In this document: positions 6,863-47,865 of the stretch, one piece after another | How positions within the stretch are numbered: the stretch's first letter is position 1 | Layout of the letters: every line of letters begins with the position of its first letter | From: a virus | Virus record (IMG/VR): IMGVR_UViG_3300043540_000178 | Span: 6,864 to 70,863 of that record | Direction: 5' to 3' (one strand) | DNA length: 64,000 nucleotides | Notes under the pieces: generated by a model | Seen by the model: only the letters and a program-made list of their open reading frames with translations | The model's database searches: none | What the model was told of the DNA's origin: nothing | Made by a program: the position numbers and the translations under genes

Positions 6863-6894
6863 TTCTCCATTTAATGTTATTTACAATGTAAGTC

Positions 6895-7671: not shown

Positions 7672-7746
7672 TGGAGAACGTGCCCAGATTCGAACTGGGG
7701 TTGACCGGATTTGCAATCCGGCACATCGCCACTCTGCCACACGTTC
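7672..7746 (-). tRNA. tRNA-Cys (GCA)
   Basis: Cloverleaf, anticodon arm CCGGA-TTGCAAA-TCCGG, GTTCGAATC, U discriminator + CCA. Confidence 0.92.
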
Positions 7747-7790
7747 TCCAAATAACTCATGTACATTGATACTGGAATAAAATTTGTATA

Positions 7791-7865
7791 TGGCACCCTC
7801 GGAGAGATTCGAACTCCCGTTATTCCCATTAGAAGTGGGATGCCTTTCCACTAGACTACGAGGGC
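7791..7865 (-). tRNA. tRNA-Arg (TCT)
   Basis: TCCCA-CTTCTAA-TGGGA, GTTCGAATC, CCA encoded. Confidence 0.92.
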
Positions 7866-7891
7866 ATTTTTATTGGAATTAAATATTCAAC

Positions 7892-8320
7892 TCATGTTAA
7901 TTTTAGCCGCAATGTCTCCAGTGCGTAATTGCTTACTAAGTGAAATTGATACTTCCTCACAGCTTCATCTTGCATCTCCTTCAACCATTGGTTATCATTT
8001 TCGGCGAAGAGTGCGTCATCTGCAATCTTCAATCCACAATTATTTTCTGCGGCACTATTAACCATTGCCTGAAGCGCATGTGTCAGCCTTGCAACTCGTA
8101 AGTTGAGTGATTTGATTTTTTCTTCTTGATCGGATCGGTTTTGACTGCTACTACAAAACGGACATTGTCCATCAGCGCAATCTTCCTGCTTTACAGCTTC
8201 ATAGAAGGCTTGAAGTTCTTCTGGTGTAACTGTTAAATAGTCACCTTGGCTGTTTAGAGGTGATACTGAATTTGGATTTATACGTTTGCATATCTGCACC
8301 ATCAGTTCAGTTGCATTCAT
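7892..8320 (-). CDS. Hypothetical protein
   Basis: ORF with AAGGAG SD, CxxxxCPFC then coiled coil. Confidence 0.65.
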   Translation of the reverse strand: MNATELMVQICKRINPNSVSPLNSQGDYLTVTPEELQAFYEAVKQEDCADGQCPFCSSSQNRSDQEEKIKSLNLRVARLTHALQAMVNSAAENNCGLKIADDALFAENDNQWLKEMQDEAVRKYQFHLVSNYALETLRLKLT

Positions 8321-8339
8321 TTTAATTCTCCTTTTGAAT

Positions 8340-8735
8340 CTAATTCATTGTTATTGCATTGAGGTATTGTGCTGCGCTTTCCAAGTTATCGAAAGTTGCA
8401 CATGCATTGCCTTCTATTATTTGTGCTACTGCATTGAGTGAAGCCCATTGCTCATCTGTGAAACGCATACTTTCATCTTCACGTAGCCGAACGAATACCG
8501 TCCGACAAGATCGCTTATTACTATCATCAACCAATTCTGCAATCAAACTCACATCGGTCATCTTTGGTGTGATAACATACAAGCGAATATCACATTCTTT
8601 ACGCTGGCGCAATTCTTCTGCAATACATTCAGATGAACAATTATCAACTACAGGATTGAAGTAATCAATATCCAGCATAGGGATAATCTGATTACGCCAA
8701 TTCGATTCTTTAGTCCCACCAAGAAAAACTTTCAT
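8340..8735 (-). CDS. Nucleoside 2-deoxyribosyltransferase-like protein
   Basis: KVFLGGT..S.WR…YFNPVVD…CD..LYVITP…SLIAE. Confidence 0.75.
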   Translation of the reverse strand: MKVFLGGTKESNWRNQIIPMLDIDYFNPVVDNCSSECIAEELRQRKECDIRLYVITPKMTDVSLIAELVDDSNKRSCRTVFVRLREDESMRFTDEQWASLNAVAQIIEGNACATFDNLESAAQYLNAITMN

Positions 8736-8826
8736 ATCTCAATCCCTTTGTAATTGTTTACCAATTGCATTCATTTTATTATCGGTTTCGATGCAAGATA
8801 GTCCATATAATTTCTGGAATGAGGTC

Positions 8827-8877
8827 ATCATATATGAAATGTTTAATTGTGCAAGAATAATTACTAACTATTTGAAT
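8827..8877 (-). promoter_or_regulatory. Early promoter with IHF-like box
   Basis: ATTCAAATAGTTA-10nt-TTGCAC-16nt-TATGAT. Confidence 0.65.
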
Positions 8878-8888
8878 CTTATAGTTAA

Positions 8889-9227
8889 TTATTCGCAACC
8901 GTAGCAAGCCATTTCATTAATACTATCTAGAGTCTGTGCTGCCTTGTGCTCAACTGCTTCTTCGAGATTCTTCTTTATAATTGAAAGAGCAGTGAATACT
9001 GCATCAATGCTCTTTCTTGCCATTTTGAGATTTTCAGAATCTTTATCAGATGGTGATGCAGCTTGGGCTATGTCATAGATCAAACCGAATCTGCGAATAC
9101 CTGTATCTAAGTTACGCAAAGCAATCTGCACTTGGTCTCGGTCAATGATCTCGTAATCATCGTCAAAAGTTCGGAACATTGCTGCATCAGTAAGTGCATC
9201 TTTCATTATATTGTCATACATATCCAT
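8889..9227 (-). CDS. Hypothetical protein
   Basis: ORF with AAGGAG SD. Confidence 0.65.
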   Translation of the reverse strand: MDMYDNIMKDALTDAAMFRTFDDDYEIIDRDQVQIALRNLDTGIRRFGLIYDIAQAASPSDKDSENLKMARKSIDAVFTALSIIKKNLEEAVEHKAAQTLDSINEMACYGCE

Positions 9228-9304
9228 TAAATTCTCCTTAAAATTTCAATCTTTATACATGAACCCCTAACAGGATATCAAGATTTCCGGTGATTGCACC
9301 CAAA

Positions 9305-9550
9305 TCAGACCTTGTAATAACTGTCCAAGATGACTTGGAGTTCTTTTTTCACTCTCCGCGCAACCTCCCCCTTCCAAGAACCTGCATTGGAAAGAAAATA
9401 AGATACTATCCCTGCCGCCGCATCAAGATGATATTTTTCGGTAATATGTGTAAGGGTGGCCATTGCATTGAGATACGGTCTAGCATAAGGGCTAACATTG
9501 TGCCAATCGGTTTTAATTTCTGCTGCAATTGTATAAAGTGGACGGACCAT
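9305..9550 (-). CDS. Conserved-looking small phage protein
   Basis: RPLY.IA.EI..DW…A.PYL.AM…YFLSNA..WKGE.AR..K.EL; AGGAG SD. Confidence 0.7.
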   Translation of the reverse strand: MVRPLYTIAAEIKTDWHNVSPYARPYLNAMATLTHITEKYHLDAAAGIVSYFLSNAGSWKGEVARRVKKELQVILDSYYKV

Positions 9551-9610
9551 GATTAACTCTCCTATGTTAGTTTATCTTTTACACATGCATTATTGTGATT
9601 GCATGATGGA

Positions 9611-9661
9611 ATTATACATGGAATATTGACATGTGCAAACATAATTGCTAACTATTTGAAT
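9611..9661 (-). promoter_or_regulatory. Early promoter with IHF-like box
   Basis: ATTCAAATAGTTA-10nt-TTGCAC-16nt-TATAAT. Confidence 0.7.
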
Positions 9662-9694
9662 CTTAAGGGTATCGAGATGAATTAATAAGTAGGA

Positions 9695-9810
9695 CACTAC
9701 AGCATCATAAATGCCAGGGTTGAGTGGAATTAAATAATTTTCGTTATTGTCGCTTTCAGGTTATCTGGAACGTAACCTTATGGAGAGCCAGACATCAGAA
9801 TGTAATAGTG
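9695..9810 (-). ncRNA. Candidate structured small RNA at the 3' end of the tRNA operon
   Basis: Ends pair (CACUAU/GUAGUG, GAUGUC/GGCAUU) and enclose AGGUUA/UAACCU and AAUAA/UUAUU hairpins. No convincing ORF. Confidence 0.4.
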
Positions 9811-9812
9811 TT

Positions 9813-9905
9813 TGGCGGAAGAGAGGAGAGTCGAACTCCTAAGGGTAAGGTCATTACCTCAACTGTTTTCAAGACAGGTGCCATCGCCATTTGGCTTGCT
9901 CTTCC
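9813..9905 (-). tRNA. tRNA-Ser (TGA)
   Basis: CTGT-CTTGAAA-ACAG, long variable arm, G discriminator + CCA. Confidence 0.92.
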
Positions 9906-9947
9906 ATTGTTTCATTAAATAATACAATTATACTATGACTGCACGTT

Positions 9948-10034
9948 TGGTGGGAGTGGAGGGACTCGAACCCACACACCATTTCTGATACGGACTTCTA
10001 AGGACCGCTCGGCTACCAATTACGACACACTCCC
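9948..10034 (-). tRNA. tRNA-Leu (TAG)
   Basis: Loop CTTAGAA, long variable arm, GTTCGAGTC, ACCA. Confidence 0.88.
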
Positions 10035-10050
10035 AATAACAAATTAATAG

Positions 10051-10197
10051 CTACATCTTAATACCATGAGTGGTATCAAATAACTTTTTTGTTTCTACGT
10101 TTGATTTCCTGCGCATGGCTTTGAATGATTTTCCATGCACTCCACATTTTCTTTTCCAGCAATGAAGCTGAATCATGTTACGCAATTTCAACTTCAT
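10051..10197 (-). CDS. Small basic protein (48 aa) inside the tRNA cluster
   Basis: AAGGA SD; MKLKLRNMIQLHCWKRKCGVHGKSFKAMRRKSNVETKK…. Confidence 0.5.
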   Translation of the reverse strand: MKLKLRNMIQLHCWKRKCGVHGKSFKAMRRKSNVETKKLFDTTHGIKM

Positions 10198-10249
10198 TTC
10201 TGATTCCTTTATGAGTGATGAACATTCATTAACGAGTTCACAATTAAAA

Positions 10250-10324
10250 TGGTTGCGGACGCAGGACTTGAACCTGCAACTATGGGGAATGAACCCATCG
10301 TGATACCAATTTCACTAATCCGCG
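10250..10324 (-). tRNA. Initiator tRNA-fMet (CAT)
   Basis: C1:A72 mismatch, three G-C pairs in the anticodon stem (ATGGG-TTCATTC-CCCAT), ACCA. Confidence 0.88.
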
Positions 10325-10331
10325 ATTGTTT

Positions 10332-10406
10332 TGGTGGGTCTTCAGGGGAACGATCCCTGCCTCCTCGGTTATGAGCCGAGCACTCTCACCAGTGAGTTAC
10401 AGACCC
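10332..10406 (-). tRNA. tRNA-Met elongator or tRNA-Ile2 (CAT)
   Basis: CTCGG-CTCATAA-CCGAG, atypical T-loop ATCGTTC, ACCA. Confidence 0.8.
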
Positions 10407-10435
10407 ATATCTTCAAATTGATGTGTAATGTTATT

Positions 10436-10512
10436 TGGTGTCCGAGATGGGATTCGAACCCATACTTAAGAGATTTTAAGTCTCTTGCCTCTACCAATTG
10501 CGCTACTCGGAC
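10436..10512 (-). tRNA. tRNA-Leu (TAA), short variable loop
   Basis: AGAGA-CTTAAAA-TCTCT, GTTCGAATC, ACCA, 77 nt. Confidence 0.88.
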
Positions 10513-10516
10513 AAGC

Positions 10517-10590
10517 TGGTAGGAGTGCAGGGAGTCGAACCCCAGCTAAAGGTTTTGGAGACCTTTGTGCTACCGTAACACTTCACTCCT
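10517..10590 (-). tRNA. tRNA-Trp (CCA)
   Basis: AAGGT-CTCCAAA-ACCTT, GTTCGACTC, CCA. Confidence 0.9.
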
Positions 10591-10631
10591 AATGATTTCT
10601 CATGCATCGCTTTATTCCATAATATACATTA

Positions 10632-10705
10632 TCGGCGATGCTGGATTTGAACCAGCGATCTTCTGTTCCCAAAACAGACGGATTACCAAGCTTTCCCAAT
10701 CGCCG
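10632..10705 (-). tRNA. tRNA-Pro (TGG), CCA not encoded
   Basis: CGG 5' end, TCTGT-TTTGGGA-ACAGA, GTTCAAATC. Confidence 0.9.
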
Positions 10706-10770
10706 ACAATGCATACTACTTAACATTTTAGTAATTTAATTACAATATCATTAGTTGTAGTTTAGGAAAC

Positions 10771-10855
10771 TGGTGCTGGAGGTGAGACTCGAACTCACGT
10801 AAGGTTTCCCTGGTGGCTTACAAAACCACTGCAATTGCCGCTATGCGACTCCAGC
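10771..10855 (-). tRNA. tRNA-Thr (TGT) with long variable arm
   Basis: GTGGT-TTTGTAA-GCCAC, extra arm CAGGGAAACCTTAC, G1-C72/C2-G71, ACCA. Confidence 0.8.
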
Positions 10856-10867
10856 ATAATTTTAATT

Positions 10868-10943
10868 TGGTGCGGGTACGGCGGATTCGAACCCCGTCTT
10901 ATAGATTGGAAGTCTATCGTGCAACCGGTAACACTTTACCCGC
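10868..10943 (-). tRNA. tRNA-Gly (TCC)
   Basis: GCG 5' end, ATAGA-CTTCCAA-TCTAT, GTTCGAATC, CCA. Confidence 0.9.
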
Positions 10944-13269: not shown

Positions 13270-13845
13270 TCATTCACAGTAAGAACTTCTCGATTTTGGT
13301 GTCTCATACCAATCAACTTGAGAAACTTTCACACCCAATGGTTTCATTTTTTCTTTTACAATATCAAAGAGCCATTTTGATAAATTTTCACTTGTCGGAA
13401 CAAAATCAACAATGAAGAATCCTTCCAATGTTTCATAAACAGGAAGGGTTGAATCAATCCCTTCTACATTGATCTCATAACCAACCAATTTATTTTCTAC
13501 AAAAACTTTATCTAACTTTATATGTCGTTTTGTATTTGAGTCAACTTCCTCGTAGAGCTGTACTACCAGTGTGTTATACATAGGATCATTTATATCAATG
13601 ATAAACTTATGGTCAAGTGTATCATCAAGGAAAGTTTTCAACCAACCCAGATGCTTGAAGTCTGTAACCATACCACGTTCTAGTGCATCAGCTTCAAGAA
13701 AAACATGAACCAATCCTTCATGTCCATGCAAGTGACGACATTTACAAGATGTGTCACCTTTTTCACAGAATTGGCTTTCTAGTTTCTGACTCCACACTCT
13801 ATGCCCATAACAAAACGAAAATGATTTATCAATTCTCCAACCCAT
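13270..13845 (-). CDS. queD: 6-carboxy-5,6,7,8-tetrahydropterin synthase
   Basis: F..GHR, CRHLHGH, GMVTDF, LDHKF, PTSENL, ETPKS. Confidence 0.92.
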   Translation of the reverse strand: MGWRIDKSFSFCYGHRVWSQKLESQFCEKGDTSCKCRHLHGHEGLVHVFLEADALERGMVTDFKHLGWLKTFLDDTLDHKFIIDINDPMYNTLVVQLYEEVDSNTKRHIKLDKVFVENKLVGYEINVEGIDSTLPVYETLEGFFIVDFVPTSENLSKWLFDIVKEKMKPLGVKVSQVDWYETPKSRSSYCE

Positions 13846-13900: not shown

Positions 13901-14167
13901 TCACATATCTGCCCAACTAATTTTAATTATGAATCCATGATCGCACAAGACCTTCTTTGCAATTTTGACGCACTGATAATTGTCAACTTTTGTGTTATTA
14001 AAACCCTCACTGTGCTTGTCATAGGCATACTGATAGTTTGCTTGGATAATTTGCCTCAATGCCTCAACATAAGGTTTATCAGATTCATAGATATAATCTC
14101 TATTTTCCAGTAGAACATGATATTTTCTATTTCCCATCAGATAACATCCTCTCAAAATTCTATCCAC
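13901..14167 (-). CDS. Hypothetical protein
   Basis: ORF in operon; start probably at MGNRK. Confidence 0.55.
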   Translation of the reverse strand: MDRILRGCYLMGNRKYHVLLENRDYIYESDKPYVEALRQIIQANYQYAYDKHSEGFNNTKVDNYQCVKIAKKVLCDHGFIIKISWADM

Positions 14168-15045
14168 GGATTACCTACTATGAATGTCTTTACTCCAAGT
14201 TCCTGCCACATTCTGATAACCGATGGTCTATCATCAATGACAAAGTGGACATTGTAATTAGGTGCAATATCACGCCAAAAAATCTCTTCCTTGACCACTG
14301 TATCCTTGCGTATGTCATTTTGTTCACGCATGATAAGACAGTCATGCATAACATCATTATCCATCAACCACTTTGATGTCTTATTGTAACAAGATCCATC
14401 ACGACCTGAAAGGATTATAATTTTTCCGGCTGAATTAACTTTCTTCCAGCCATTAACTAACTCACGAACGCAATGGTCAACTATATCAAGGTCAACCTTA
14501 TCCCACTCAAATGCACCGCGCTTGCCGTTCATGTGTGCAAGAGTCCCATCAATATCGACTAAAATGCACTTTGGTTTTGTTTCATCTGCAGTATAACGTT
14601 TACGTCCAATTGTTTCCAGAAACTCTTTATACTGTTTTGCAATAACTGAATGACCAACACCATTCTTGCGAGCAGCATCACGCCTCCATGCTTCTTCAAG
14701 AGAAACATAAAACACTTTAACAATGACAGTGAAACCAAGTGATTCAAGCTCTTTAATCATTGAATTTCGGCGATTTGTATTCAAGTTAGTATCCGAAATA
14801 TAAACAGATTTTTTTTGGTTAGCGCATTCCCTAATTTTCTCCCATGCAATAATGGTAACCTCTTTCTCGCGCTTCCAGTCCCATGTATCCCATGAGAATA
14901 CCTCGCCATCAGATTCTACAAGCCGCTTGCGAATATTATCACGATTGACTTCCACACGATTAATAGGATCAACTGCACACCACTGCATGGCATCCGTAGA
15001 CTTTCCAGATGCAGAAATTCCAATAGATACAATTGCTTCTTTCAT
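14152..15045 (-). CDS. pseT: Polynucleotide 5'-kinase/3'-phosphatase
   Basis: GISASGKST, NRDNIR, DTNLN, HAD DIDGTLA, SGR, DDRPSV. Confidence 0.95.
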   Translation of the reverse strand: MKEAIVSIGISASGKSTDAMQWCAVDPINRVEVNRDNIRKRLVESDGEVFSWDTWDWKREKEVTIIAWEKIRECANQKKSVYISDTNLNTNRRNSMIKELESLGFTVIVKVFYVSLEEAWRRDAARKNGVGHSVIAKQYKEFLETIGRKRYTADETKPKCILVDIDGTLAHMNGKRGAFEWDKVDLDIVDHCVRELVNGWKKVNSAGKIIILSGRDGSCYNKTSKWLMDNDVMHDCLIMREQNDIRKDTVVKEEIFWRDIAPNYNVHFVIDDRPSVIRMWQELGVKTFIVGNPWIEF

Positions 15046-15051
15046 TTTACA

Positions 15052-16185
15052 TTATCCTGCAAAATTAGAATTGTACACATTCTTTAAACTATACTTTGAC
15101 TTCATAATATTTTTCAAAAAATATTCAACGTATTCAGGCTCTTTACCACGCATGTTTTGCATAATCAAACCGAAATATGGGTGACCATTTAATGAAAGTG
15201 CAGCTTCTTTAAAAGATGTGTTATTGGCAATCAATGTTTCAGTTATACTTTCTACCTGACTACGAACAGAAGAAATATCGTCAGATACGGATTTTTCAAT
15301 CTGTTCAATCTTCGTCAAATCCAAACCAGCATCAGTGACAGATGATTTAATATCATCTAGTTTTTCTAGTGCAGCCAGTTCAGCAACATCCCGCTCACGT
15401 AAACCTGTTTGCACACGATGTTGTTGCAAATACCACTTTGTCTTTACTTTATAAAATTCATTCTTCACAATGTCAAATACAATCCAGCCTTCAATATTTT
15501 TTGCGGTTTCATGTAACTCAACCATGTCTTTCTGAAAATTATCCCATACCTTGACAGGAGCACTAGGCATTGTAGGAAATCCATTTTCTTTCAATAGAAG
15601 ATCACGCAAATAAATCCCATCAGTCATTCGACGAGAATTTAACCACCATGTACAAGGGATATCACCATAAGGAATAACAATCCTCCAATCTGGATGATAG
15701 AATTCAAAAATTGGCGATATCCCATTTGCTGCCAACTGAATTATGTTATCTGTCCATACATTAGCATTTTCCTGTTTCCAGAACCACTTGGTGAATTCTT
15801 GTGCAACATCTGAGTAAAAAGACTTCTTGGTCTTGAAATAAACATTGCCATTAATGACAACGGCATTAATCATTGATCCATCCATCTTGTCAAATGTGTA
15901 ATTTGTGATATTATTCCAGTTGATATTATATGAAAGAGTTTCTTCACGCTCACCAACGTTAAAAAACTTGTGAAATGCAACACCAATTAATTCACCAGTG
16001 GATTTCAGATAAGTATGGCCCCTCAGTTCACGAGAAAATGGCATATCCCAAAACTTAGAATCAGCAATCATATAACACGGAATTACAACGTCCACATCAC
16101 CAACTGTTTCTTCTTTGAATTGAACTCGTGGATCAGTTCGGAAGTGTTCTAAGTCAGATAAATTTTGTGGAATTTTAAAAATCAT
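15052..16185 (-). CDS. rnlA: RNA ligase 1 (T4 Rnl1-like)
   Basis: RELRG, FHKFFNVGE, KMDGSMI, FEF, RIVIPY, EGWI, KVKTKWY; adjacent to pseT. Confidence 0.92.
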   Translation of the reverse strand: MIFKIPQNLSDLEHFRTDPRVQFKEETVGDVDVVIPCYMIADSKFWDMPFSRELRGHTYLKSTGELIGVAFHKFFNVGEREETLSYNINWNNITNYTFDKMDGSMINAVVINGNVYFKTKKSFYSDVAQEFTKWFWKQENANVWTDNIIQLAANGISPIFEFYHPDWRIVIPYGDIPCTWWLNSRRMTDGIYLRDLLLKENGFPTMPSAPVKVWDNFQKDMVELHETAKNIEGWIVFDIVKNEFYKVKTKWYLQQHRVQTGLRERDVAELAALEKLDDIKSSVTDAGLDLTKIEQIEKSVSDDISSVRSQVESITETLIANNTSFKEAALSLNGHPYFGLIMQNMRGKEPEYVEYFLKNIMKSKYSLKNVYNSNFAG

Positions 16186-17078: not shown

Positions 17079-18284
17079 CTACAAATCCAGTAAACCTTTG
17101 GATTGTCCCTTTTTATTTTTTGGTTCATTTGCAGTAGTGTCTTTTATAGTTTCATTCACAATTCTTTGAGGCGCATCAAAAAATCTTGTCAATACAGTTT
17201 CACCTTTAGGAAACCTCATTACTCCACTCATAACCATTTCGATTTTTTGGATTGCATCATCTGTTCCATCAAATAAGCATTGATGAGGCACTATTTCATC
17301 ATGGGACAACCCGCGAGGTGCAACTGGAATTGTGTCATAATATAATGCTTCAGCAAGACAATATCCAAAATTTTCTTCAATTGAATTTGTTAACATGACT
17401 TTACTTGTTGCTATTTCTTCGTGATATTGTTTTTTTGTCAGCCCTTCTTTGATTGTGATAATGCCTTGCTTTTCCATCAGATGAGCTTTCTCAATTAACC
17501 ATGCTTGATTTGATTTCAACTCCTTGTTTGAAGTTGTAATCACAAATTCCCAATCTGGGTGCTTTGACTTTAATATGGCAGCAATATCTAAACTGATATT
17601 TGGACGTTTTTCATAATCAAAGCGATTTGGCATAATAATTTTATTGATTTTATTGCTGGTAAAAATCACATTTTCACCACTGGTATCAAATGTTCGTTTA
17701 AAAGATGTTACACCTGCATATTCACTCTTGAATAACGGATTACCTGTAACGATAATCTTATCTGATAATAGCATCCAATCATCTTTGTTTGCATATGGAC
17801 GAATTCTGCGTTCGATTACTGCATGCTTGTGATACTCAGAACCAACGAACACTTTATCGCAGATGCTCAACCAACCTAGTTCAGTGTACTTTTGCCACGG
17901 GGCCAACTGCTCCATAAGGTCTTCGTGAGTATAGGATGCTGCATGTAAGAATGCATATATACGAATGTTTTTGTTATTAATCTGTGCCATCATCTTGATG
18001 GCCTCTATACCCCAATGTTCCAAGTCAAAACTGAATACAATATCGTCATCTTTGACTTTGCCTTCTTGAAACATTTTCGCCATCGTAGCAACCTGAGTAT
18101 TCTTATAATGAACTGTGCTGTTCATCGGCAACCACGAGCCAACATCAATGCTATCTGAAAGAGGCGTTCCGTCAATCACTTGTACATTATATTTTTGTGC
18201 AAACACCTTCGGAAATTCTCTATACCACTGACCGGTGTATCTTGACTCAAATGGTTCCAATGGTAAAAGCCATGCTGTATTCAT
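17079..18284 (-). CDS. Glycosyltransferase, GT-B/GT4-like
   Basis: PNRFDYEKRP, EENFGYCLAEA (Ex7E), PVAP, N-terminal LEPFESRYTGQW. Confidence 0.85.
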   Translation of the reverse strand: MNTAWLLPLEPFESRYTGQWYREFPKVFAQKYNVQVIDGTPLSDSIDVGSWLPMNSTVHYKNTQVATMAKMFQEGKVKDDDIVFSFDLEHWGIEAIKMMAQINNKNIRIYAFLHAASYTHEDLMEQLAPWQKYTELGWLSICDKVFVGSEYHKHAVIERRIRPYANKDDWMLLSDKIIVTGNPLFKSEYAGVTSFKRTFDTSGENVIFTSNKINKIIMPNRFDYEKRPNISLDIAAILKSKHPDWEFVITTSNKELKSNQAWLIEKAHLMEKQGIITIKEGLTKKQYHEEIATSKVMLTNSIEENFGYCLAEALYYDTIPVAPRGLSHDEIVPHQCLFDGTDDAIQKIEMVMSGVMRFPKGETVLTRFFDAPQRIVNETIKDTTANEPKNKKGQSKGLLDL

Positions 18285-18667
18285 ATTTCAATGTCTCCGG
18301 TAAAATCTTCTGGTCGAGTAATCACCATAGTTCGTTTGGTGGTTGCAAACACTGTTAGATCTTTTGAAAATTTAATTTGATCGTTTGGATGCAAACTCCA
18401 AAATGATTCATTGTCAATCGTCAAAATGATATTTACATTTTCGGGATGTTCAGATACTTTAGTTCGTTCAACAGTCACAATGAAGCGTTCAGTTAAATGT
18501 GTCAACTCATATAAATCAAGTATGTTATTGTGATCTGAGATGTATAAACCTCTCACATCATCAGGCACTTCAATTTTGAAGTTCTCATTGCTGATTTCAT
18601 ATGCAGTACAAAACAATGTTTTTATACCGCACAAACGACCTTCTACTTCAATACCAATTTTTGCCAT
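18281..18667 (-). CDS. Hypothetical protein within the DNA-modification operon
   Basis: GIEVEG…GIKTLF motif; start (MAKIG) overlaps the upstream stop and stop overlaps the GT start. Confidence 0.7.
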   Translation of the reverse strand: MAKIGIEVEGRLCGIKTLFCTAYEISNENFKIEVPDDVRGLYISDHNNILDLYELTHLTERFIVTVERTKVSEHPENVNIILTIDNESFWSLHPNDQIKFSKDLTVFATTKRTMVITRPEDFTGDIEI

Positions 18668-19488
18668 TATGCAAGATACTCCGTTACGCAACCATTTTCG
18701 TCATCTTCACTCACTTCTATGGTCAAAGAACGACCTGGGTATTTATTCTTTATCTTCAATGATAATTCATCGGCAAGCATTTCGCAAGATTTGAAATCTA
18801 GTTTAAGAGTTCCATCACCATAGAGAGATTCACACCACCTCTTAAACTGAATAAACTCAATATCACGGTCATCGTGAAATACCTCAATTTGAACTTTGAA
18901 ATGAAACATGTGCCGATGCGGATACCCTAGGAAACTCACATCTTTCAACTTAGGGTCAGCCAATGCTGCTGGGTATTGATGTATTCCTTCTTTCTGAAAC
19001 TTTATCCAAATCTTACAAACATCATCTTTTTTTGTCAGAGACTCAAACAAAAAGTACTTCTCATTCGCAAATAGTTTGTGTTGTGATGGGTAAAGTGTCA
19101 ATAAAGTTTTTTCTTTTTCGACTTGTAATTCTTCAGAAAGAATATCAAATTTAGTGTTCATATCTATTGAATAATATTGTAGTTTATACATGTGCAAATT
19201 TTGCTTTGCAAACCGATTGACAGACTTATGATGTGGGTGGACATCATGTATATTTGGAACCAAGAAAATTGTCTCAGGATCTTCTTGTTTGATTGATATC
19301 GTTTCATTTTTCAAGAATATAGGCTCGAAGTTGAATAATTCTGCTGCTCTTTTTGCCTCTGCAATTCGTTCTTCAGTCAGGTCATAAAAATAATAAACTT
19401 TACTAACCAAACCAGCTTTTAGCAATCTGAAACACCCTATAACATCGTCATCAATATGCGGCGACAGTATCACTACATTTTTCATCAT
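18667..19488 (-). CDS. PIG-L/LmbE deacetylase domain fused to a QueD-paralog T-fold domain (DpdL-like)
   Basis: N-terminal ILSPHIDDDVIG and HPHH metal motifs; C-terminal EGIH.YP, LGYPHRHMFHF, DRDIEF, SCEMLA, VSEDDENG. Confidence 0.8.
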   Translation of the reverse strand: MMKNVVILSPHIDDDVIGCFRLLKAGLVSKVYYFYDLTEERIAEAKRAAELFNFEPIFLKNETISIKQEDPETIFLVPNIHDVHPHHKSVNRFAKQNLHMYKLQYYSIDMNTKFDILSEELQVEKEKTLLTLYPSQHKLFANEKYFLFESLTKKDDVCKIWIKFQKEGIHQYPAALADPKLKDVSFLGYPHRHMFHFKVQIEVFHDDRDIEFIQFKRWCESLYGDGTLKLDFKSCEMLADELSLKIKNKYPGRSLTIEVSEDDENGCVTEYLA

Positions 19489-20077
19489 AACTCTTCTTTC
19501 TTTGGAGATAATCAACAACTTCACCATTCACAAAATACTCTTGTGACATAGGTATTTCATTCTCATGTAGATAGTCAAAAACATCATCGTCTGTCCAATC
19601 ATAAATTGGATATAACATACTCAAGTCGAATATGCCTCTTTCTACAAATGATGGCATATCTTTTCGACTGATTTTTTCACCGTTGACAATGATTTCAGAA
19701 CTCTTGCCCGGCCTATTCCATTCACTTCGTCTAGCACCATCAATTTGGCATTTCAGCATATTTTTTGCTATCCAATTTGGCATTTTGCTTGAGTGCATGA
19801 ACTGGACTTCATATTTGGTGCCGACCATTTTATATAAAAACTGTAAAGTCAGTTCGTGCATTGCTGTTAGTTTGGCGACGTCGTCCTCTGTTTCATTTAG
19901 TAGAGGTTTAACGTTGTGAACAATTGTTAGTTCATGTGGCTTTATAACTTGACTTGTTAAGTGTAGTACAACAGTTGAATCTTTCCCGCCTGAGTGTCCC
20001 AAAAACAGACCCGAACCAAATTTGTTTTTTGCATCACGAATTAATTGTAATGCAGAATCAACTTTACTTACATTCAT
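19451..20077 (-). CDS. PAPS-reductase-fold PP-loop adenylyltransferase-like protein
   Basis: SGGKDST, DGARRSE..R, YPIYDWTDDDVFDYL; no C-terminal redox Cys motif. Confidence 0.8.
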   Translation of the reverse strand: MNVSKVDSALQLIRDAKNKFGSGLFLGHSGGKDSTVVLHLTSQVIKPHELTIVHNVKPLLNETEDDVAKLTAMHELTLQFLYKMVGTKYEVQFMHSSKMPNWIAKNMLKCQIDGARRSEWNRPGKSSEIIVNGEKISRKDMPSFVERGIFDLSMLYPIYDWTDDDVFDYLHENEIPMSQEYFVNGEVVDYLQRKKSYDEKCSDTVAAY

Positions 20078-21353
20078 ATAAAAACTCCTCTAATGATGAT
20101 CCATTATCTTCAATAGATGCAGTTCTTTTGCTATCAAAGTATTTACCGTATTCACGCTTCCATTTCTTAAAATCATCAACGGTGTTCAAATGTTCAAGTG
20201 TGTGGTACATACCTTCATATTTCTTCTTGGTTTTACTAACATAATTTGACTCATTTTTCAACTTATCAACCATCTCAAATAAGTTGTGCACCGAGAACAA
20301 TAGCAGTGCAAAACGAATGTTGTTTAAGTCACACATTGCTTGAACATTATCTTCAGGGTTTCCAGTTTTGGCAACTCTATCTTCCGCTGATAATAATAGA
20401 TTATCATGGAACTGTTCTTCTGTAAAGTTCAATCCTAGTTTAGTCTTTTGGAATGTGTCAAAAAGATGCCAGATTTTCCAATATGTTTGAGTGCGATGTC
20501 GACCAATCATCCAAATCTGACTGCCAACTTGTATTTGTGAACGTATTACACCTCCGGTATGTTTTGTACTGTCATATGAGATTAGTTGATTTTCTTTGAA
20601 CAAATGCTGTAGCTTCATCAATGTTTGAATTCTATTTGGACTCCCAACCCCCAGTAAATGGAAATGATTTGTTAAATTGTCCGGTACTTGCAATTTCGCT
20701 AAGGTGAAGTATCGTTCAACATCCTCTAACTCACCATTACCCAAACATCCACCACCAGATGCAATACCTGCTAGTTTAGCTTGATAATCTTGAGGAATAT
20801 GTTTCAACAACTTATCTGCCCATTCTTGATACGTGTCAATATCATTCCCCTGAATAATCATAAACGGTTTACATTTTGTTTGCAATTCGTCAAACACATC
20901 AATTTGCTTACAAATATTTCTGGCAGTTTGCTTGGTGCACTCATCAACCATGCTCCTGTCATATTTTCGATTTTCACTATTGACGAATTGACTTTTTCCC
21001 TCTGTTCTTAGTGGGATCTCATCAAAACACATTGCATGGGTTCCATACTTTGCCTGAACTCGATAAACTTTATCTCGAAGTTCATCATTTGGTGTATGAC
21101 CAAGGGTAATCATTTGCAATCCACCAGAGTCGACTTGAATTGAATATGGTGAGAAATAATCAACATGATATTGACCATCATCCGGTTCATTATATGCATT
21201 GAATAATACACCAAAAGAATGATAATCATACCATGAGTTTACCTTGTGTACCATATCGTGGATAGGTTTCAAGGCTTCAGGTGTACTCAATCTCACAAAC
21301 TGAGAACTGAATACAAATGAGAGTGCAGACGCAATGTATTCTAACCGAGGCAT
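20064..21353 (-). CDS. dpdA: TGT-fold guanine transglycosylase (DpdA-like)
   Basis: VDSGGLQ, MCFDEIP, IIQGN, HLLGVGS, SYDST; adjacent to folE. Confidence 0.8.
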   Translation of the reverse strand: MPRLEYIASALSFVFSSQFVRLSTPEALKPIHDMVHKVNSWYDYHSFGVLFNAYNEPDDGQYHVDYFSPYSIQVDSGGLQMITLGHTPNDELRDKVYRVQAKYGTHAMCFDEIPLRTEGKSQFVNSENRKYDRSMVDECTKQTARNICKQIDVFDELQTKCKPFMIIQGNDIDTYQEWADKLLKHIPQDYQAKLAGIASGGGCLGNGELEDVERYFTLAKLQVPDNLTNHFHLLGVGSPNRIQTLMKLQHLFKENQLISYDSTKHTGGVIRSQIQVGSQIWMIGRHRTQTYWKIWHLFDTFQKTKLGLNFTEEQFHDNLLLSAEDRVAKTGNPEDNVQAMCDLNNIRFALLLFSVHNLFEMVDKLKNESNYVSKTKKKYEGMYHTLEHLNTVDDFKKWKREYGKYFDSKRTASIEDNGSSLEEFLYECK

Positions 21354-21362
21354 AATATTGTT

Positions 21363-22043
21363 TTATCTTGCAAGAGACATGAACTCAGATCGCACTGGAC
21401 CTTCTTTGAAAACACCACCCAACGCACTGGTGCTTGTATGAGATGATTGATCTTGGATACCGCGACTCTTGACGCAATAGTGCGTAGCATCAATAACAAC
21501 AGCAACATCTTCTGTATCAAGAATAAATTTCATGGTCTCAAAAATTTGGGCTGTTAGTCGTTCTTGCACTTGAGGACGACGAGAGAAGTAGTTAACCACC
21601 CGATTAATCTTACTCAATCCAATTACTTTATTTTTAGGAATGTATGCAACAGATGCTTTACCATCAATTACCACACCATGATGTTCGCATTGTGACATAA
21701 CTGCAATGTCTTTTTCCACAAGCATTTCATTGTACTTCATCTTGTTATCAATGGTGGTTATCTTTGGGAAATTATCAGGCGACAATCCCCAATAAATTTC
21801 TTTGACAAACATCTTTGCAATTCTGCGTGGAGTATCTGCAAGTGAATCATCGTTCATATTAAGACCAAGAATTTCCCAAATAGATTTTGTATGAAACTCG
21901 ATTTCTTCTAGTTTATATGCGTCATCAAGTTTCAATTTATCAGTGGTTGGTGTTTGAAGTCCCAAACTGATAAGATGATTTTCTACTTTTTGACCCAAAA
22001 CTGGATCGGTTTTGCCAATATGTGACATATTAATCCCTTTCAT
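21363..22043 (-). CDS. folE: GTP cyclohydrolase I
   Basis: DTPRRIAKM, SQCEHH, AYIP, GLSKINR, RRPQVQERLT, HYCVKSRG. Confidence 0.97.
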   Translation of the reverse strand: MKGINMSHIGKTDPVLGQKVENHLISLGLQTPTTDKLKLDDAYKLEEIEFHTKSIWEILGLNMNDDSLADTPRRIAKMFVKEIYWGLSPDNFPKITTIDNKMKYNEMLVEKDIAVMSQCEHHGVVIDGKASVAYIPKNKVIGLSKINRVVNYFSRRPQVQERLTAQIFETMKFILDTEDVAVVIDATHYCVKSRGIQDQSSHTSTSALGGVFKEGPVRSEFMSLAR

Positions 22044-44191: not shown

Positions 44192-44584
44192 TCAAGATGA
44201 ATCAGAATCATTTTTGAGATTGCGATGTACCCCACTAGGGCGATCATCACCGTCCGGATAATGTTTTGAGTAATAAGTTAGCATACGAAGATTGCATATC
44301 GCATGTGCAAGATGCGGTAATCCAGATTCTGGATCAAGTTCCTCCCCTTGTTGCCATGCAGACATGTGTCGCATAAGACATGCAAATGGAACTGACCATG
44401 CCATGCCTTTAGTCCAATTCCATGCGGCATATTTCTTTGCACCATACTCCCATACCCTAGCTTCATCAGCTAAGGTATCAAATGGAATCAAAGAATAGTC
44501 TGGTTTGCCTGCATTGTAGCGAGCACCAGAACCCCTTTTTGACGAATTAATATCGCCAATTCCTCCAATATTATTTTCTATCAT
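44192..44584 (-). CDS. dATP/dGTP diphosphohydrolase-like protein
   Basis: GKP.YSLIP…YGAKKY..WNW.KG…RH…GE..DPESGLPHLAHA.CN. Confidence 0.85.
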   Translation of the reverse strand: MIENNIGGIGDINSSKRGSGARYNAGKPDYSLIPFDTLADEARVWEYGAKKYAAWNWTKGMAWSVPFACLMRHMSAWQQGEELDPESGLPHLAHAICNLRMLTYYSKHYPDGDDRPSGVHRNLKNDSDSS

Positions 44585-46523: not shown

Positions 46524-46979
46524 TTACTCATGCTCCCAAGGAAATTGAATCCATCTATTGTCAATGCTTCTGTCAATAACACGACTATAAAAGTCTACAG
46601 TAGATTTATTTTGTGATGGATTATACCATAGTGCGGCATACTTTAAATTATCTTTAATATCAAACATTCTCTCTTTTAAGAGATGAAGTGTATCACCAGT
46701 ATCAACAATATCATCTATGAGCAGATATTTTTTGCCGGATGCCGCTTGAGCTGCAATTTTATCCACAGCAAATGTATCTTTCTTTTTTCCATCACGCAAT
46801 GACCAATTAATATAATGTGCTGGTACATCAAAGTAATGAGATGCAATTGTGGCAGGTATCACACCACCTCTTGCAAGTCCAATAATTCCATTTGGAATGA
46901 AATTGCTTTCTTTAATCGCATTACAAATACAGATAGTATCTGTGTACATCTCATCCCATTTGTAGTAAATCTTTTCCAT
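46524..46979 (-). CDS. Type I phosphoribosyltransferase (Gpt-like)
   Basis: IIGLARGG.IPA, LLIDDIVDTGDT, WIQFPWE. Confidence 0.92.
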   Translation of the reverse strand: MEKIYYKWDEMYTDTICICNAIKESNFIPNGIIGLARGGVIPATIASHYFDVPAHYINWSLRDGKKKDTFAVDKIAAQAASGKKYLLIDDIVDTGDTLHLLKERMFDIKDNLKYAALWYNPSQNKSTVDFYSRVIDRSIDNRWIQFPWEHE

Positions 46980-46986
46980 TTAGTCC

Positions 46987-47865
46987 TCATGCATCAATTG
47001 CATTACCCAAAGTTACAACATGTAACCGGCCGCTTATATTATATCCTTCTGAAATTGCACGTTTTGTAATATGTTCAATCTGTTTGTAATTGGTTTGCTG
47101 GTCGTATGAACTACCAACTGGCATTATATAAATTGAAGGAAACCATCCAAGATTATTCGCCAAATCTTCATACTTCAATTTTAATTCTTTCCATGCTACA
47201 TCTGAATTATTTACAACTACCTTTAAATCAATTGAATCCGAATTTTCAGCCAAATTCTGAATTGTATTTGCATTCCATGTATATTCTTCACCAGATACAT
47301 TATGTAACTTTAGAGATACGTTAAAATGTACATGCATATCTGATAATGCATGTATTAAATCAGATGACATTTCGCAAGTGCCATTTGTTTCAAATTGAAT
47401 GATGGGTGGGATCTTATTCTGAAATTCATCTGATTGAAACATCTCACAAAGAGATTTTTGTTGCAACAGTGGCTCACCACCGGTTATACAAAGATGAATA
47501 TCATTATGCGTGAACGGATGATACCATTGTTTATGCCCAAAACCATCAGTGGGTAAATAATCCATAATCTCTTTCATCACATCGGATGGTTCCATATCAC
47601 GTCTCAAATGCTTAAAGCGAGGGTCAATTGCATACAATGTATCACATCCGTACTCAACAACTGGAAAATCATCTAATTTAGTAATTAATTTTGGATCAAA
47701 CTCAATTGGTTTGATGTATGTCGATGGGTCAGCCGGATTTGGTTGACTGAATCCAGGACATTTTAGATTGCAACCGAATAAACGAAGCCATATAGCCAAT
47801 TTCCCTGTATATCTGCCCTCACCTTGAAAAGAATAGAAGGTTTGTGACACTTTGAGTTTACTCAT
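46987..47865 (-). CDS. queE: 7-carboxy-7-deazaguanine synthase (radical SAM)
   Basis: FYSFQGEG, R.FGCNLKC…GCDT.YA, ITGGEPLLQ, ETNGT, S.KL, MPVG, RLH. Confidence 0.92.
   Translation of the reverse strand: MSKLKVSQTFYSFQGEGRYTGKLAIWLRLFGCNLKCPGFSQPNPADPSTYIKPIEFDPKLITKLDDFPVVEYGCDTLYAIDPRFKHLRRDMEPSDVMKEIMDYLPTDGFGHKQWYHPFTHNDIHLCITGGEPLLQQKSLCEMFQSDEFQNKIPPIIQFETNGTCEMSSDLIHALSDMHVHFNVSLKLHNVSGEEYTWNANTIQNLAENSDSIDLKVVVNNSDVAWKELKLKYEDLANNLGWFPSIYIMPVGSSYDQQTNYKQIEHITKRAISEGYNISGRLHVVTLGNAIDA

Follow-up and report, generated by a model that had tools for sequence, protein, structure and literature searches.

To our knowledge, the 7-deazaguanine bases known in DNA bear only small groups (carboxy, amido, cyano, aminomethyl, methyl- or formyl-aminomethyl, amidino) or none at all, and the glycosylated DNA bases known so far are all pyrimidines. 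GT-B glycosyltransferases (GTs) are paired with LmbE-family enzymes in the synthesis of bacillithiol (BshA/BshB), mycothiol (MshA/MshB) and glycosylphosphatidylinositol (GPI; PIG-A/PIG-L), where the deacetylase works after the transferase; MshC and BshC are ATP-using enzymes of the mycothiol and bacillithiol pathways, respectively. Here, we analyse a gene in which an LmbE/PIG-L-like domain is fused to a homologue of the phage protein DpdL. The gene lies in a 64,000-nucleotide stretch of viral DNA (hereafter, the window), corresponding to positions 6,864 to 70,863 of the IMG/VR record IMGVR_UViG_3300043540_000178 (70,863 bp; CheckV completeness 39%). The fusion is a new architecture uniting two known families. 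Under our best reading, it encodes a putative bifunctional enzyme of a pathway that would decorate a 7-deazaguanine in DNA with an amino sugar.

DpdL was described by Cui et al. (2023; PMC10516641) as the product of CGPG_00067 of Cellulophaga phage phiST, a QueD paralogue in which the CxxxHGH motif is changed to LxxxHRHxF, and was proposed there to decarboxylate 7-carboxy-7-deazaguanine (CDG), giving 7-deazaguanine. Phage GTs have been reported to act on hydroxylated pyrimidines, as in the glucosylation of 5-hydroxymethylcytosine in T4 and in the formation of arabinosyl-5-hydroxycytosine, with escape from nucleases as a result (PMC13326640). In the CmoX/CmoY carboxymethylcytosine system, a carboxyl group on the DNA base is described as the handle for an ATP-dependent amide ligase (PMC12783734). 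Our literature searches, which did not extend to the supplementary tables of Cui et al. (2023) that list DpdL-encoding phages and may include some of the genomes considered here, retrieved no publication on an LmbE-DpdL fusion, on the module described below or on glycosylated deazaguanine. The combination of 'DpdL' and '7-deazaguanine' returned only two versions of Cui et al. (PMC10516641), and the words 'glycosyl', 'deacetylase' and 'PAPS' do not occur in the main text of that paper.

Architecture of the fusion protein

The fusion protein of 273 amino acids (aa) is encoded on the minus strand by a single open reading frame (ORF; 18667..19488) with no internal stop codon. With the start at 19488, the protein begins with MMKNVV, and 28 fused homologues start near the same position; the database gene call for this contig (P0001) starts at 19485 and yields 272 aa, and the longest ORF from the first ATG (18667..19527) encodes 286 aa. 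All the motifs that the initial annotation had read in this frame, without stating its strand, are present, namely, PHIDD (residues 10-14), HPHH (84-87), LGYPHRHMF (187-195), SCE (234-236) and SEDDENG (260-266). An AlphaFold2 (AF2) model built from a 29-sequence alignment of the window protein and its 28 fused homologues has a mean predicted local distance difference test score (pLDDT) of 93.1 and a predicted template modelling score of 0.75; the pLDDT is 90-95 around residues 150-170, i.e. the model is confident across the domain junction. Both the alignment and the model indicate that the interdomain linker is very short (residues ~150-160).

Structural comparison of the N-terminal domain (residues 1-156) retrieves LmbE-family chains throughout the top 17 VIA rows. 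The best match is BC1534 (2ixd_A; Z 14.6, root mean square deviation 3.0 Å, 155 residues aligned), and the matches include BshB (6p2t/6ull; Z 14.4), the teicoplanin and A40926 deacetylases (~14), diacetylchitobiose deacetylase (~13.4), the GalB hydratase (13.0) and MshB (11.4), with 1q74 also among the LmbE-family structures matched; Foldseek pairs the domain with TT1542 (1uan) at E 1.5e-5. Hence, it models as PIG-L, the structural check that the initial annotation had called for. The domain is a minimal core, its 156 residues being spread over chain residues 2..222 of a 232-residue solved enzyme, i.e. ~70 residues fewer. From work on MshB and BshB, the HxDD motif is known to supply metal ligands and the general base, and HPxH the third metal ligand. 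The corresponding stretches of the fusion are SPHIDDD (residues 9-15) and DVHPHH (82-87), in which H11, D13, D14, D82, H84 and H87 are invariant in 29 of 29 fused proteins; among the best 150 N-family representatives, 145 have both motifs and 148 have HxDD. With its metal motifs intact, the domain does not appear to be dead, and by analogy it may catalyse amide hydrolysis of an N-acetyl-hexosamine conjugate.

At the sequence level, the domain is remote from its relatives. The window protein scores 13.2 bits against PF02585 (E 0.13; cut-off 28.2), and on its own has no Pfam match at E<=0.1 and no NCBIfam match at the thresholds used; PDB sequence searches with the fused-family profile A1 and with A2 yielded no significant match. 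At the family level, 27 of the 29 fused proteins match PF02585 at E<=1, and 42 of 72 sequences from the wider family do so at E<=0.01 (best, 1.3e-9). A profile of these 72 sequences (A9) reaches TT1542 at E 0.0041, and all five of its PDB matches at E<=1 are LmbE-family chains. The alignment with TT1542 pairs APHvDDEvIGC with APHPDDGELGC and DaHpdHk with DRHPDHT, the second motif also matching DRHPDH of BshB. Because the score falls below the cut-off while the family-level matches, the fold and the motifs fit, we assign the domain to a divergent branch of the LmbE/PIG-L superfamily and not, by score, to PF02585.

The C-terminal domain is DpdL by homology, motif, T-fold and gene context. It matches phrog_17812 at 1.4e-36, and tblastn pairs it with DpdL of Acidovorax phage ACP17 (60% identity, E 3e-39) and with phiST CGPG_00067 (34.5%, E 4e-7); the identities in our DpdL alignment (A3) are 58% and 33%, respectively. 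Over the eight DpdL rows of that alignment, phiST and ACP17 among them, L187, H191, H193, F195, the SCE triplet and E261/D262 are invariant; the position of R192 is a Phe in DpdL of Pseudomonas phage PA5oct. Leu187 occupies the position of the catalytic Cys of QueD (CxxxHGH), and LxxxHRHxF, taken as the DpdL signature in the initial annotation, agrees with the definition of Cui et al. (2023; PMC10516641). Decarboxylation of CDG, the published proposal for DpdL, may by homology extend to this domain.

Given that hhalign of the DpdL alignment against a four-row QueD alignment gave a probability of only 15%, the T-fold assignment rests on the fold search and on PF01242, which is reached by two of the 72 relatives of the fused family (E 4.5e-5). 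In the fold search, residues ~155-272 match the 6-pyruvoyl tetrahydropterin synthase 2dtt (VIA Z 11.8) and E. coli QueD (4ntk; VIA Z 11.4, Foldseek E 2.4e-4). The true QueD is encoded by a separate gene, the only one found by PF01242 in this record, and has no significant BLASTP similarity to the C-terminal domain (best E 1.8), in line with the distinction drawn in the initial annotation.

Recurrence of the fusion

The 28 fused homologues, which come from separate sources, match the query over 93-100% of its length with 43-63% identity, and the fused gene is present on four separate viral contigs. At E<=0.001, a library of 1.84 billion proteins contains 720 representatives of the N-domain family. 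Among the best 150 of these, 23 carry the DpdL domain, 110 are proteins of 180-249 aa with an unrelated tail and nine are shorter than 180 aa. No larger fusion was found among proteins of 479-2000 aa at E<=1e-5, which is weak evidence of absence. The initial annotation had named a sequencing artefact and a catalytically dead N-terminal domain as what could undo its reading. That the fusion stems from assembly or gene calling, or that its N-terminal domain is a dead remnant, is hardly conceivable in view of the independently sampled homologues and contigs, the invariant catalytic motifs and the confidently modelled junction; nothing was found in favour of this explanation, the lack of a Pfam match for the window protein alone being the sole point to mention on its side.

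In a quick maximum-likelihood tree built from 125 DpdL domains (119 columns, unrooted; the careful search is unfinished), the fused rows fall with ACP17 and the split forms from LmbE-module loci in one clade with 99% support. The fused label requires five changes on this short tree, and the starred branches force at least three; fusion or fission has thus been repeated in DpdL history. Such repetition is what two cooperating proteins would be expected to show.

Stand-alone LmbE-like proteins (P0121-P0129; loci L089, L090, L096 and L101) consist either of the bare domain (158-173 aa) or of 197-245 aa with a poorly conserved tail. These tails have no detectable similarity to DpdL, and the notion that they are decayed T-folds found no support (hhalign probability, 0.2%). 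In Xanthomonas phage X1, the annotated start of the LmbE-like gene (WEM34304.1; L001, 7031..7678) removes the PHxDDE motif; the open frame runs further upstream and encodes SPHVDDEVIGC, so that the deposited coding sequence has probably been called too short.

A conserved module associated with DpdL

The fusion gene is part of an operon of overlapping or nearly adjoining genes in which FolE, DpdA, a PP-loop ATPase, the fusion, a 128-aa protein and a GT are encoded in this order, all on the minus strand. The DpdA and PP-loop genes overlap by 14 nt, and the PP-loop and fusion genes by 35-38 nt; TAATG is shared by the stop of the fusion and the start of the 128-aa protein, and ATGA by the stop of the latter and the start of the GT. 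Scanning IMG/VR with the N-domain alignment yielded 18 loci (L087 being the same contig as L004), of which the 16 with a full N-domain match were counted; L103 and L104, with partial matches of 29 and 71 residues and no neighbouring module genes, were left out. In all 16, the LmbE-like gene is followed by the gene for the small protein and then by that for the GT, and in 15 the PP-loop gene is directly upstream of the LmbE-like gene (the exception is L095, where it lies on the opposite strand, 3 kb downstream). Of the 16 records, 14 contain DpdL, which is fused in four, within 8 kb in eight and elsewhere in the record in two. The complete 200-kb genome of Xanthomonas phage X1 carries the split form, with FolE, PP-loop, LmbE-like, small protein, GT, DpdA, DpdL and QueE.

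QueE and the separate QueD complete the gene context that Cui et al. (2023; PMC10516641) described for DpdL, as FolE, QueD, QueE and DpdA are all encoded in the window record and QueC is not found there: PF06508 has no match at E<=1 in the 70.9 kb, a provisional result given that the record is 39% complete. No QueC exceeds the cut-off in the complete phage X1 either. Because QueC is absent, the pathway would stop short of preQ0.

These observations bear on whether the LmbE-like domain might instead hydrolyse a non-sugar deazapurine amide, converting 7-amido-7-deazaguanine (ADG) back to CDG, which would feed the DpdL domain, or cleaving an N-acyl or N-formyl aminomethyl derivative. Successive deazapurine intermediates would then be handled by the two domains, and the GT would work at a later point or elsewhere. 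The direct fusion through a very short linker would suit consecutive steps on one small substrate, the pocket of a 156-residue core may differ from those of the larger solved enzymes, and some members of the superfamily, such as the GalB hydratase, are not sugar deacetylases. However, the window record, X1 and three further records yielded neither QueC nor another source of ADG or preQ0, and a GT accompanies the LmbE-like gene in every locus counted. Moreover, these GTs form a distinct subgroup, with 42-55% identity to the window GT in the 16 module loci versus 20-33% for those beside stand-alone DpdL in loci without LmbE. We consider non-sugar amide hydrolysis quite unlikely.

The association was also found from the DpdL side, in a set of 86 loci comprising the 80 top-ranking viral DpdL hits, out of at least 580, together with the window and the named phages. 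A homologue of the window GT is encoded in 74 of the 86, usually directly downstream of DpdL, together with a 243-aa protein (67 loci), a 507-aa protein (66), DNA polymerase (65), FolE (63), a 175-aa family (59) and QueE (26). In the named phages, PA5oct gp167 falls in the GT cluster, and ACP17 gp124, which adjoins its DpdL, has weak GT1 matches; ACP17 gp123 belongs to the same phrog_10773 family as the window DpdA (1.5e-168).

Most of these loci (L005-L083 and L085; e.g. L035, 4746..15818) share a cluster of the 243-aa, 507-aa and 175-aa proteins, DpdL and GT, which continues with combinations of epimerase/dehydratase, DegT, methyltransferase-like protein, phosphoribosyltransferase, FolE, QueE and S-adenosylmethionine synthetase. 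A homologue of the window DpdA was not detected in the loci of this majority type. The 507-aa protein, which has no Pfam or PHROG match, may be their missing insertion enzyme. Across the 83 DpdL loci lacking the LmbE module, we counted epimerase/dehydratase in 38, DegT aminotransferase in 19, a methyltransferase-like gene in 33 and phosphoribosyltransferase in 35, whereas the epimerase, DegT and methyltransferase-like genes are found in none of the 18 LmbE-module loci. This complementarity suggests two cluster types, each pairing DpdL and GT with an amino-sugar route, by aminotransfer in one and by de-N-acetylation in the other.

The initial annotation took the fusion as the best evidence that the GT and PIG-L genes belong to the base-modification pathway. 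Conserved gene order and co-occurrence with DpdL now tie these genes to it on a broader footing, and at the level of genomics that interpretation is supported.

Proposed pathway and objections to it

We tentatively favour, at a likelihood somewhat short of even, the view that the fusion acts as a bifunctional enzyme in a phage pathway by which a decorated 7-deazaguanine takes the place of guanine in virion DNA. FolE, QueD and QueE would produce CDG, on which the DpdL domain, a putative zinc T-fold with Leu in place of Cys, would act, presumably by the proposed decarboxylation to 7-deazaguanine. DpdA would swap the base into DNA, the GT-B enzyme would attach an N-acetyl-hexosamine, and the LmbE-like domain would take the acetyl group off, exposing a free amine, in the manner of the GT and LmbE pairs of thiol and GPI synthesis; the PP-loop ATPase and the 128-aa protein probably provide an ATP-dependent step on the same intermediate. 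What the sequences show is the domain identities, intact motifs, recurrent fusion, operon structure, module order and co-occurrence with DpdL. The activities of both domains are inferred, as are the sugar donor and acceptor atom, the sequence of steps and the level at which the decoration takes place (free base, nucleotide or DNA). The module and the fusion appear to point to an undescribed decorated 7-deazaguanine.

A narrower form of this proposal, which we regard as somewhat unlikely, holds that guanine is replaced by an amino-sugar-bearing 7-deazaguanine, perhaps also in phages with a stand-alone DpdL and GT (ACP17 and PA5oct-like jumbo phages); this would be the first glycosylated purine in DNA. 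DpdL would then prepare position 7, either by freeing an electron-rich pyrrole carbon for C-glycosylation or by yielding some other handle, after which the GT would add N-acetyl-hexosamine, the fused LmbE domain would unmask the amine, and the PP-loop ATPase with the small protein would ligate or activate a further group.

Several observations weigh against the proposed pathway. The main gap is the acceptor, as 7-deazaguanine has no hydroxyl for an ordinary O-glycosyltransferase. Expression of phiST or ACP17 dpdL together with DpdA in E. coli gave no detectable 2'-deoxy-7-deazaguanine (dDG) in the experiments reported by Cui et al. (2023; PMC10516641); if the amino-sugar proposal holds, the ACP17 result would be explained by the missing neighbouring GT and 175-aa protein. 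Phage phiST is reported to make dDG, and has DpdL but no homologue of the window GT, LmbE-like or PP-loop gene, so that, as far as described, DpdL does not need this GT. Part of the co-occurrence of DpdL and GT reflects shared ancestry, given the DNA polymerase neighbour in 65 of 86 loci. Two records (G006 and G007, 52% and 21% complete) carry the module without DpdL, 127 of the 150 best N-family representatives are not fused, and the PF02585 score of the window protein is below the cut-off. Finally, the gene table of Stenotrophomonas phage DLP3 contains a cluster of PIG-L and a BshA-like GT, and no Stenotrophomonas phage is among the DpdL tblastn matches; hence, PIG-L and GT pairs can exist outside deazaguanine clusters.

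Some of these points would be explained if the genes were merely co-regulated, with DpdL making 7-deazaguanine for DNA and the PP-loop/LmbE/small protein/GT module decorating something else, for example another base of the DNA, a protein of the virion, a precursor of the host envelope or a soluble metabolite. The sugar-modifying enzymes that accompany the PIG-L and GT genes of DLP3, the dDG of phiST made without the GT, the prevalence of unfused N-family members and the missing hydroxyl all fit such a division of labour. It would leave unaccounted for, however, the repeated switching between fused and split states, the presence of DpdL in nearly all module-bearing records and of a GT next to DpdL in most DpdL loci, and the gene overlaps that run continuously from DpdA to GT. 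A hydroxylated pyrimidine was considered as the GT target and rejected: searches of the window record, the complete X1 genome, ACP17 and the 100%-complete G002 revealed no ThyA homologue; one is present in G001 and G003. Because ThyA is absent from X1 and G002, a GT merely serving a pyrimidine pathway is disfavoured. Taken together, we judge co-regulation without a shared pathway unlikely.

Genomic context

The window is the part of a large T4-like phage genome devoted to replication and nucleotide metabolism; it encodes a family-B DNA polymerase, ribonucleotide reductase, RIIA, SbcC, ligase, helicases, clamp and clamp-loader proteins and RegA. The features considered here are listed in Table 1.

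Table 1. Features of the window, with coordinates counted from its first nucleotide
Feature	Coordinates	Strand	Remarks
Fusion gene	18667..19488	-	273 aa; stop codon 18667-18669; alternative starts 19485, 19527
N-terminal LmbE/PIG-L-like metal hydrolase domain	19021..19488	-	residues 1-156; PHIDD 10-14, DVHPHH 82-87
C-terminal DpdL-type T-fold domain	18670..19020	-	residues 157-273; LGYPHRHMF, SCE, SEDDENG
GTP cyclohydrolase I (FolE)	21363..22043	-	phrog_2197 at 1.7e-70
DpdA-like DNA transglycosylase	20064..21353	-	phrog_10773 at 7.9e-84; weak Pfam and NCBIfam tRNA-guanine transglycosylase matches
PP-loop ATPase, PAPS-reductase/CysD/FAD-synthase type	19451..20077	-	SGGKDS motif; PF01507 at 5.7e-12
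128-aa protein, unassigned family	18284..18667	-	begins MAKIGIEVEG; AF2 pLDDT 95
GT-B type glycosyltransferase, Glycos_transf_1 domain	17079..18284	-	PF00534 at 2.1e-10, 40.8 bits (cut-off 26.4)
True QueD	13270..13845	-	CxxxHGH as CRHLHGH; PF01242 at 3.3e-28; phrog_2389 at 7.1e-35
QueE, radical-SAM CDG synthase	46987..47865	-	QueE profile 3.7e-47; phrog_2076 at 3.6e-48
Phosphoribosyltransferase beside QueE	46524..46979	-	PF00156 at 9.8e-13
MazZ-like dATP/dGTP diphosphohydrolase N-terminal domain	44192..44584	-	between DNA polymerase and DNA ligase; PF18909 at 1.2e-31
T4-type RNA repair: polynucleotide kinase/phosphatase-like and RNA ligase 1-like ORFs	14152..16185	-	named by reading the sequences
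Eleven tRNA genes	7672..10943	-	Cys, Arg, Ser, Leu x2, Met x2, Trp, Pro, Thr, Gly

PDB sequence searches gave nothing for the GT and, for the PP-loop protein, only borderline matches to CysD and FAD synthase (E 0.005-0.007); in Atlas, the PP-loop protein and the 175-aa family returned no more than the PAPS_reduct assignment and leads with low scores. The 128-aa protein is probably a distant homologue of the 175-aa family of the DpdL loci (hhalign probability 64.8%, E 6e-5, 122 columns). A structural search of 48,161 chains with this protein places QueE in the top three ranks, at low scores (Z 5.7, 5.5 and 5.5; Foldseek E 0.13). The notion of a stripped QueE was rejected and kept as a lead only, as the protein lacks Fe-S cysteines and its hhalign probability against a QueE alignment is 0.4%, with a single 14-column stretch, IEVEGRLxGxxTLF at the N-terminus, paired with the QGEG stretch of the QueE rows. 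The protein could be a cluster-less QueE-like substrate-binding barrel.

The phosphoribosyltransferase could convert a deazapurine base to its nucleotide or recover guanine that DpdA has released, and the MazZ-like protein fits dGTP depletion in a phage that replaces G. None of the eleven tRNAs has a GUN anticodon, so that none would be a queuosine substrate, and this set fits DNA rather than tRNA as the target of the deazaguanine genes. The RNA repair pair is located between the GT and QueD genes, and the same pair follows the module in L004.

An alternative product of the cluster would be a soluble deazapurine glycoside or nucleotide that is used in infection, in the manner of pyrrolopyrimidine nucleoside antibiotics, and is not a DNA base. 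The phosphoribosyltransferase next to QueE, with homologues in 35 of the 83 other DpdL loci, would suit such a product, as would three records (G001-G003) in which the module and QueE are present and a homologue of the window DpdA was not detected. Yet the same enzyme could equally salvage guanine from base exchange, DpdA lies within the operon in both the window and X1, the cluster sits in a replication module beside DNA polymerase, and the MazZ-like enzyme points to exclusion of G from DNA; we regard a soluble product as very unlikely.

Comparison with known systems

The recurrent LmbE-DpdL fusion in an operon with DpdA and a GT provides genomic evidence for a sugar-bearing layer on a purine. 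In most of the loci examined, DpdL is accompanied by a GT and a small conserved protein, which suggests missing partners for DpdL. Cultured phages carry each form, the split LmbE module in Xanthomonas phages X1 and BUDD, and DpdL with GT in ACP17 and PA5oct. A sugar-bearing deazaguanine, if it exists, would bear on restriction evasion, on defence systems that sense modified DNA, and on the sequencing and cloning of these phages.

Among the described systems, the DpdL proteins of phiST and ACP17 (Cui et al., 2023; PMC10516641) are closest to the C-terminal domain, being homologous to it and sharing LxxxHRHxF, the His and Glu residues, the T-fold and, as described there, the setting of FolE, QueD, QueE and DpdA without QueC. 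The phiST protein stands alone, however, whereas DpdL of the window is the C-terminal half of a two-domain protein. QueD has the same T-fold and differs in the Cys of CxxxHGH, which is Leu in the LGYPHRH of the window protein.

The GT and LmbE pairs of thiol and GPI synthesis resemble the window in fold, in the HxDD and HPxH motifs, in the Glycos_transf_1 enzyme encoded in the operon and in the presence of an ATP-using enzyme in the module. In contrast to those deacetylases, the window domain has 156 residues instead of 220-290, scores below the PF02585 cut-off and is joined to a T-fold. The role of ATP-using enzyme falls to a PP-loop protein of the PAPS-reductase type instead of a Cys ligase, and the context is phage DNA modification rather than thiol or GPI synthesis. 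The pyrimidine glycosylation systems (PMC13326640), as described, need a ThyA-type enzyme, which was not found in X1 or G002, and the partners of the GT in the window are 7-deazaguanine genes. Finally, the logic of CmoX/CmoY (PMC12783734) may be likened to that of CDG, the PP-loop ATPase and a freshly unmasked sugar amine, although that system, as presented in its report, involves another base, a ligase of the asparagine-synthetase type, no sugar and no DpdL.

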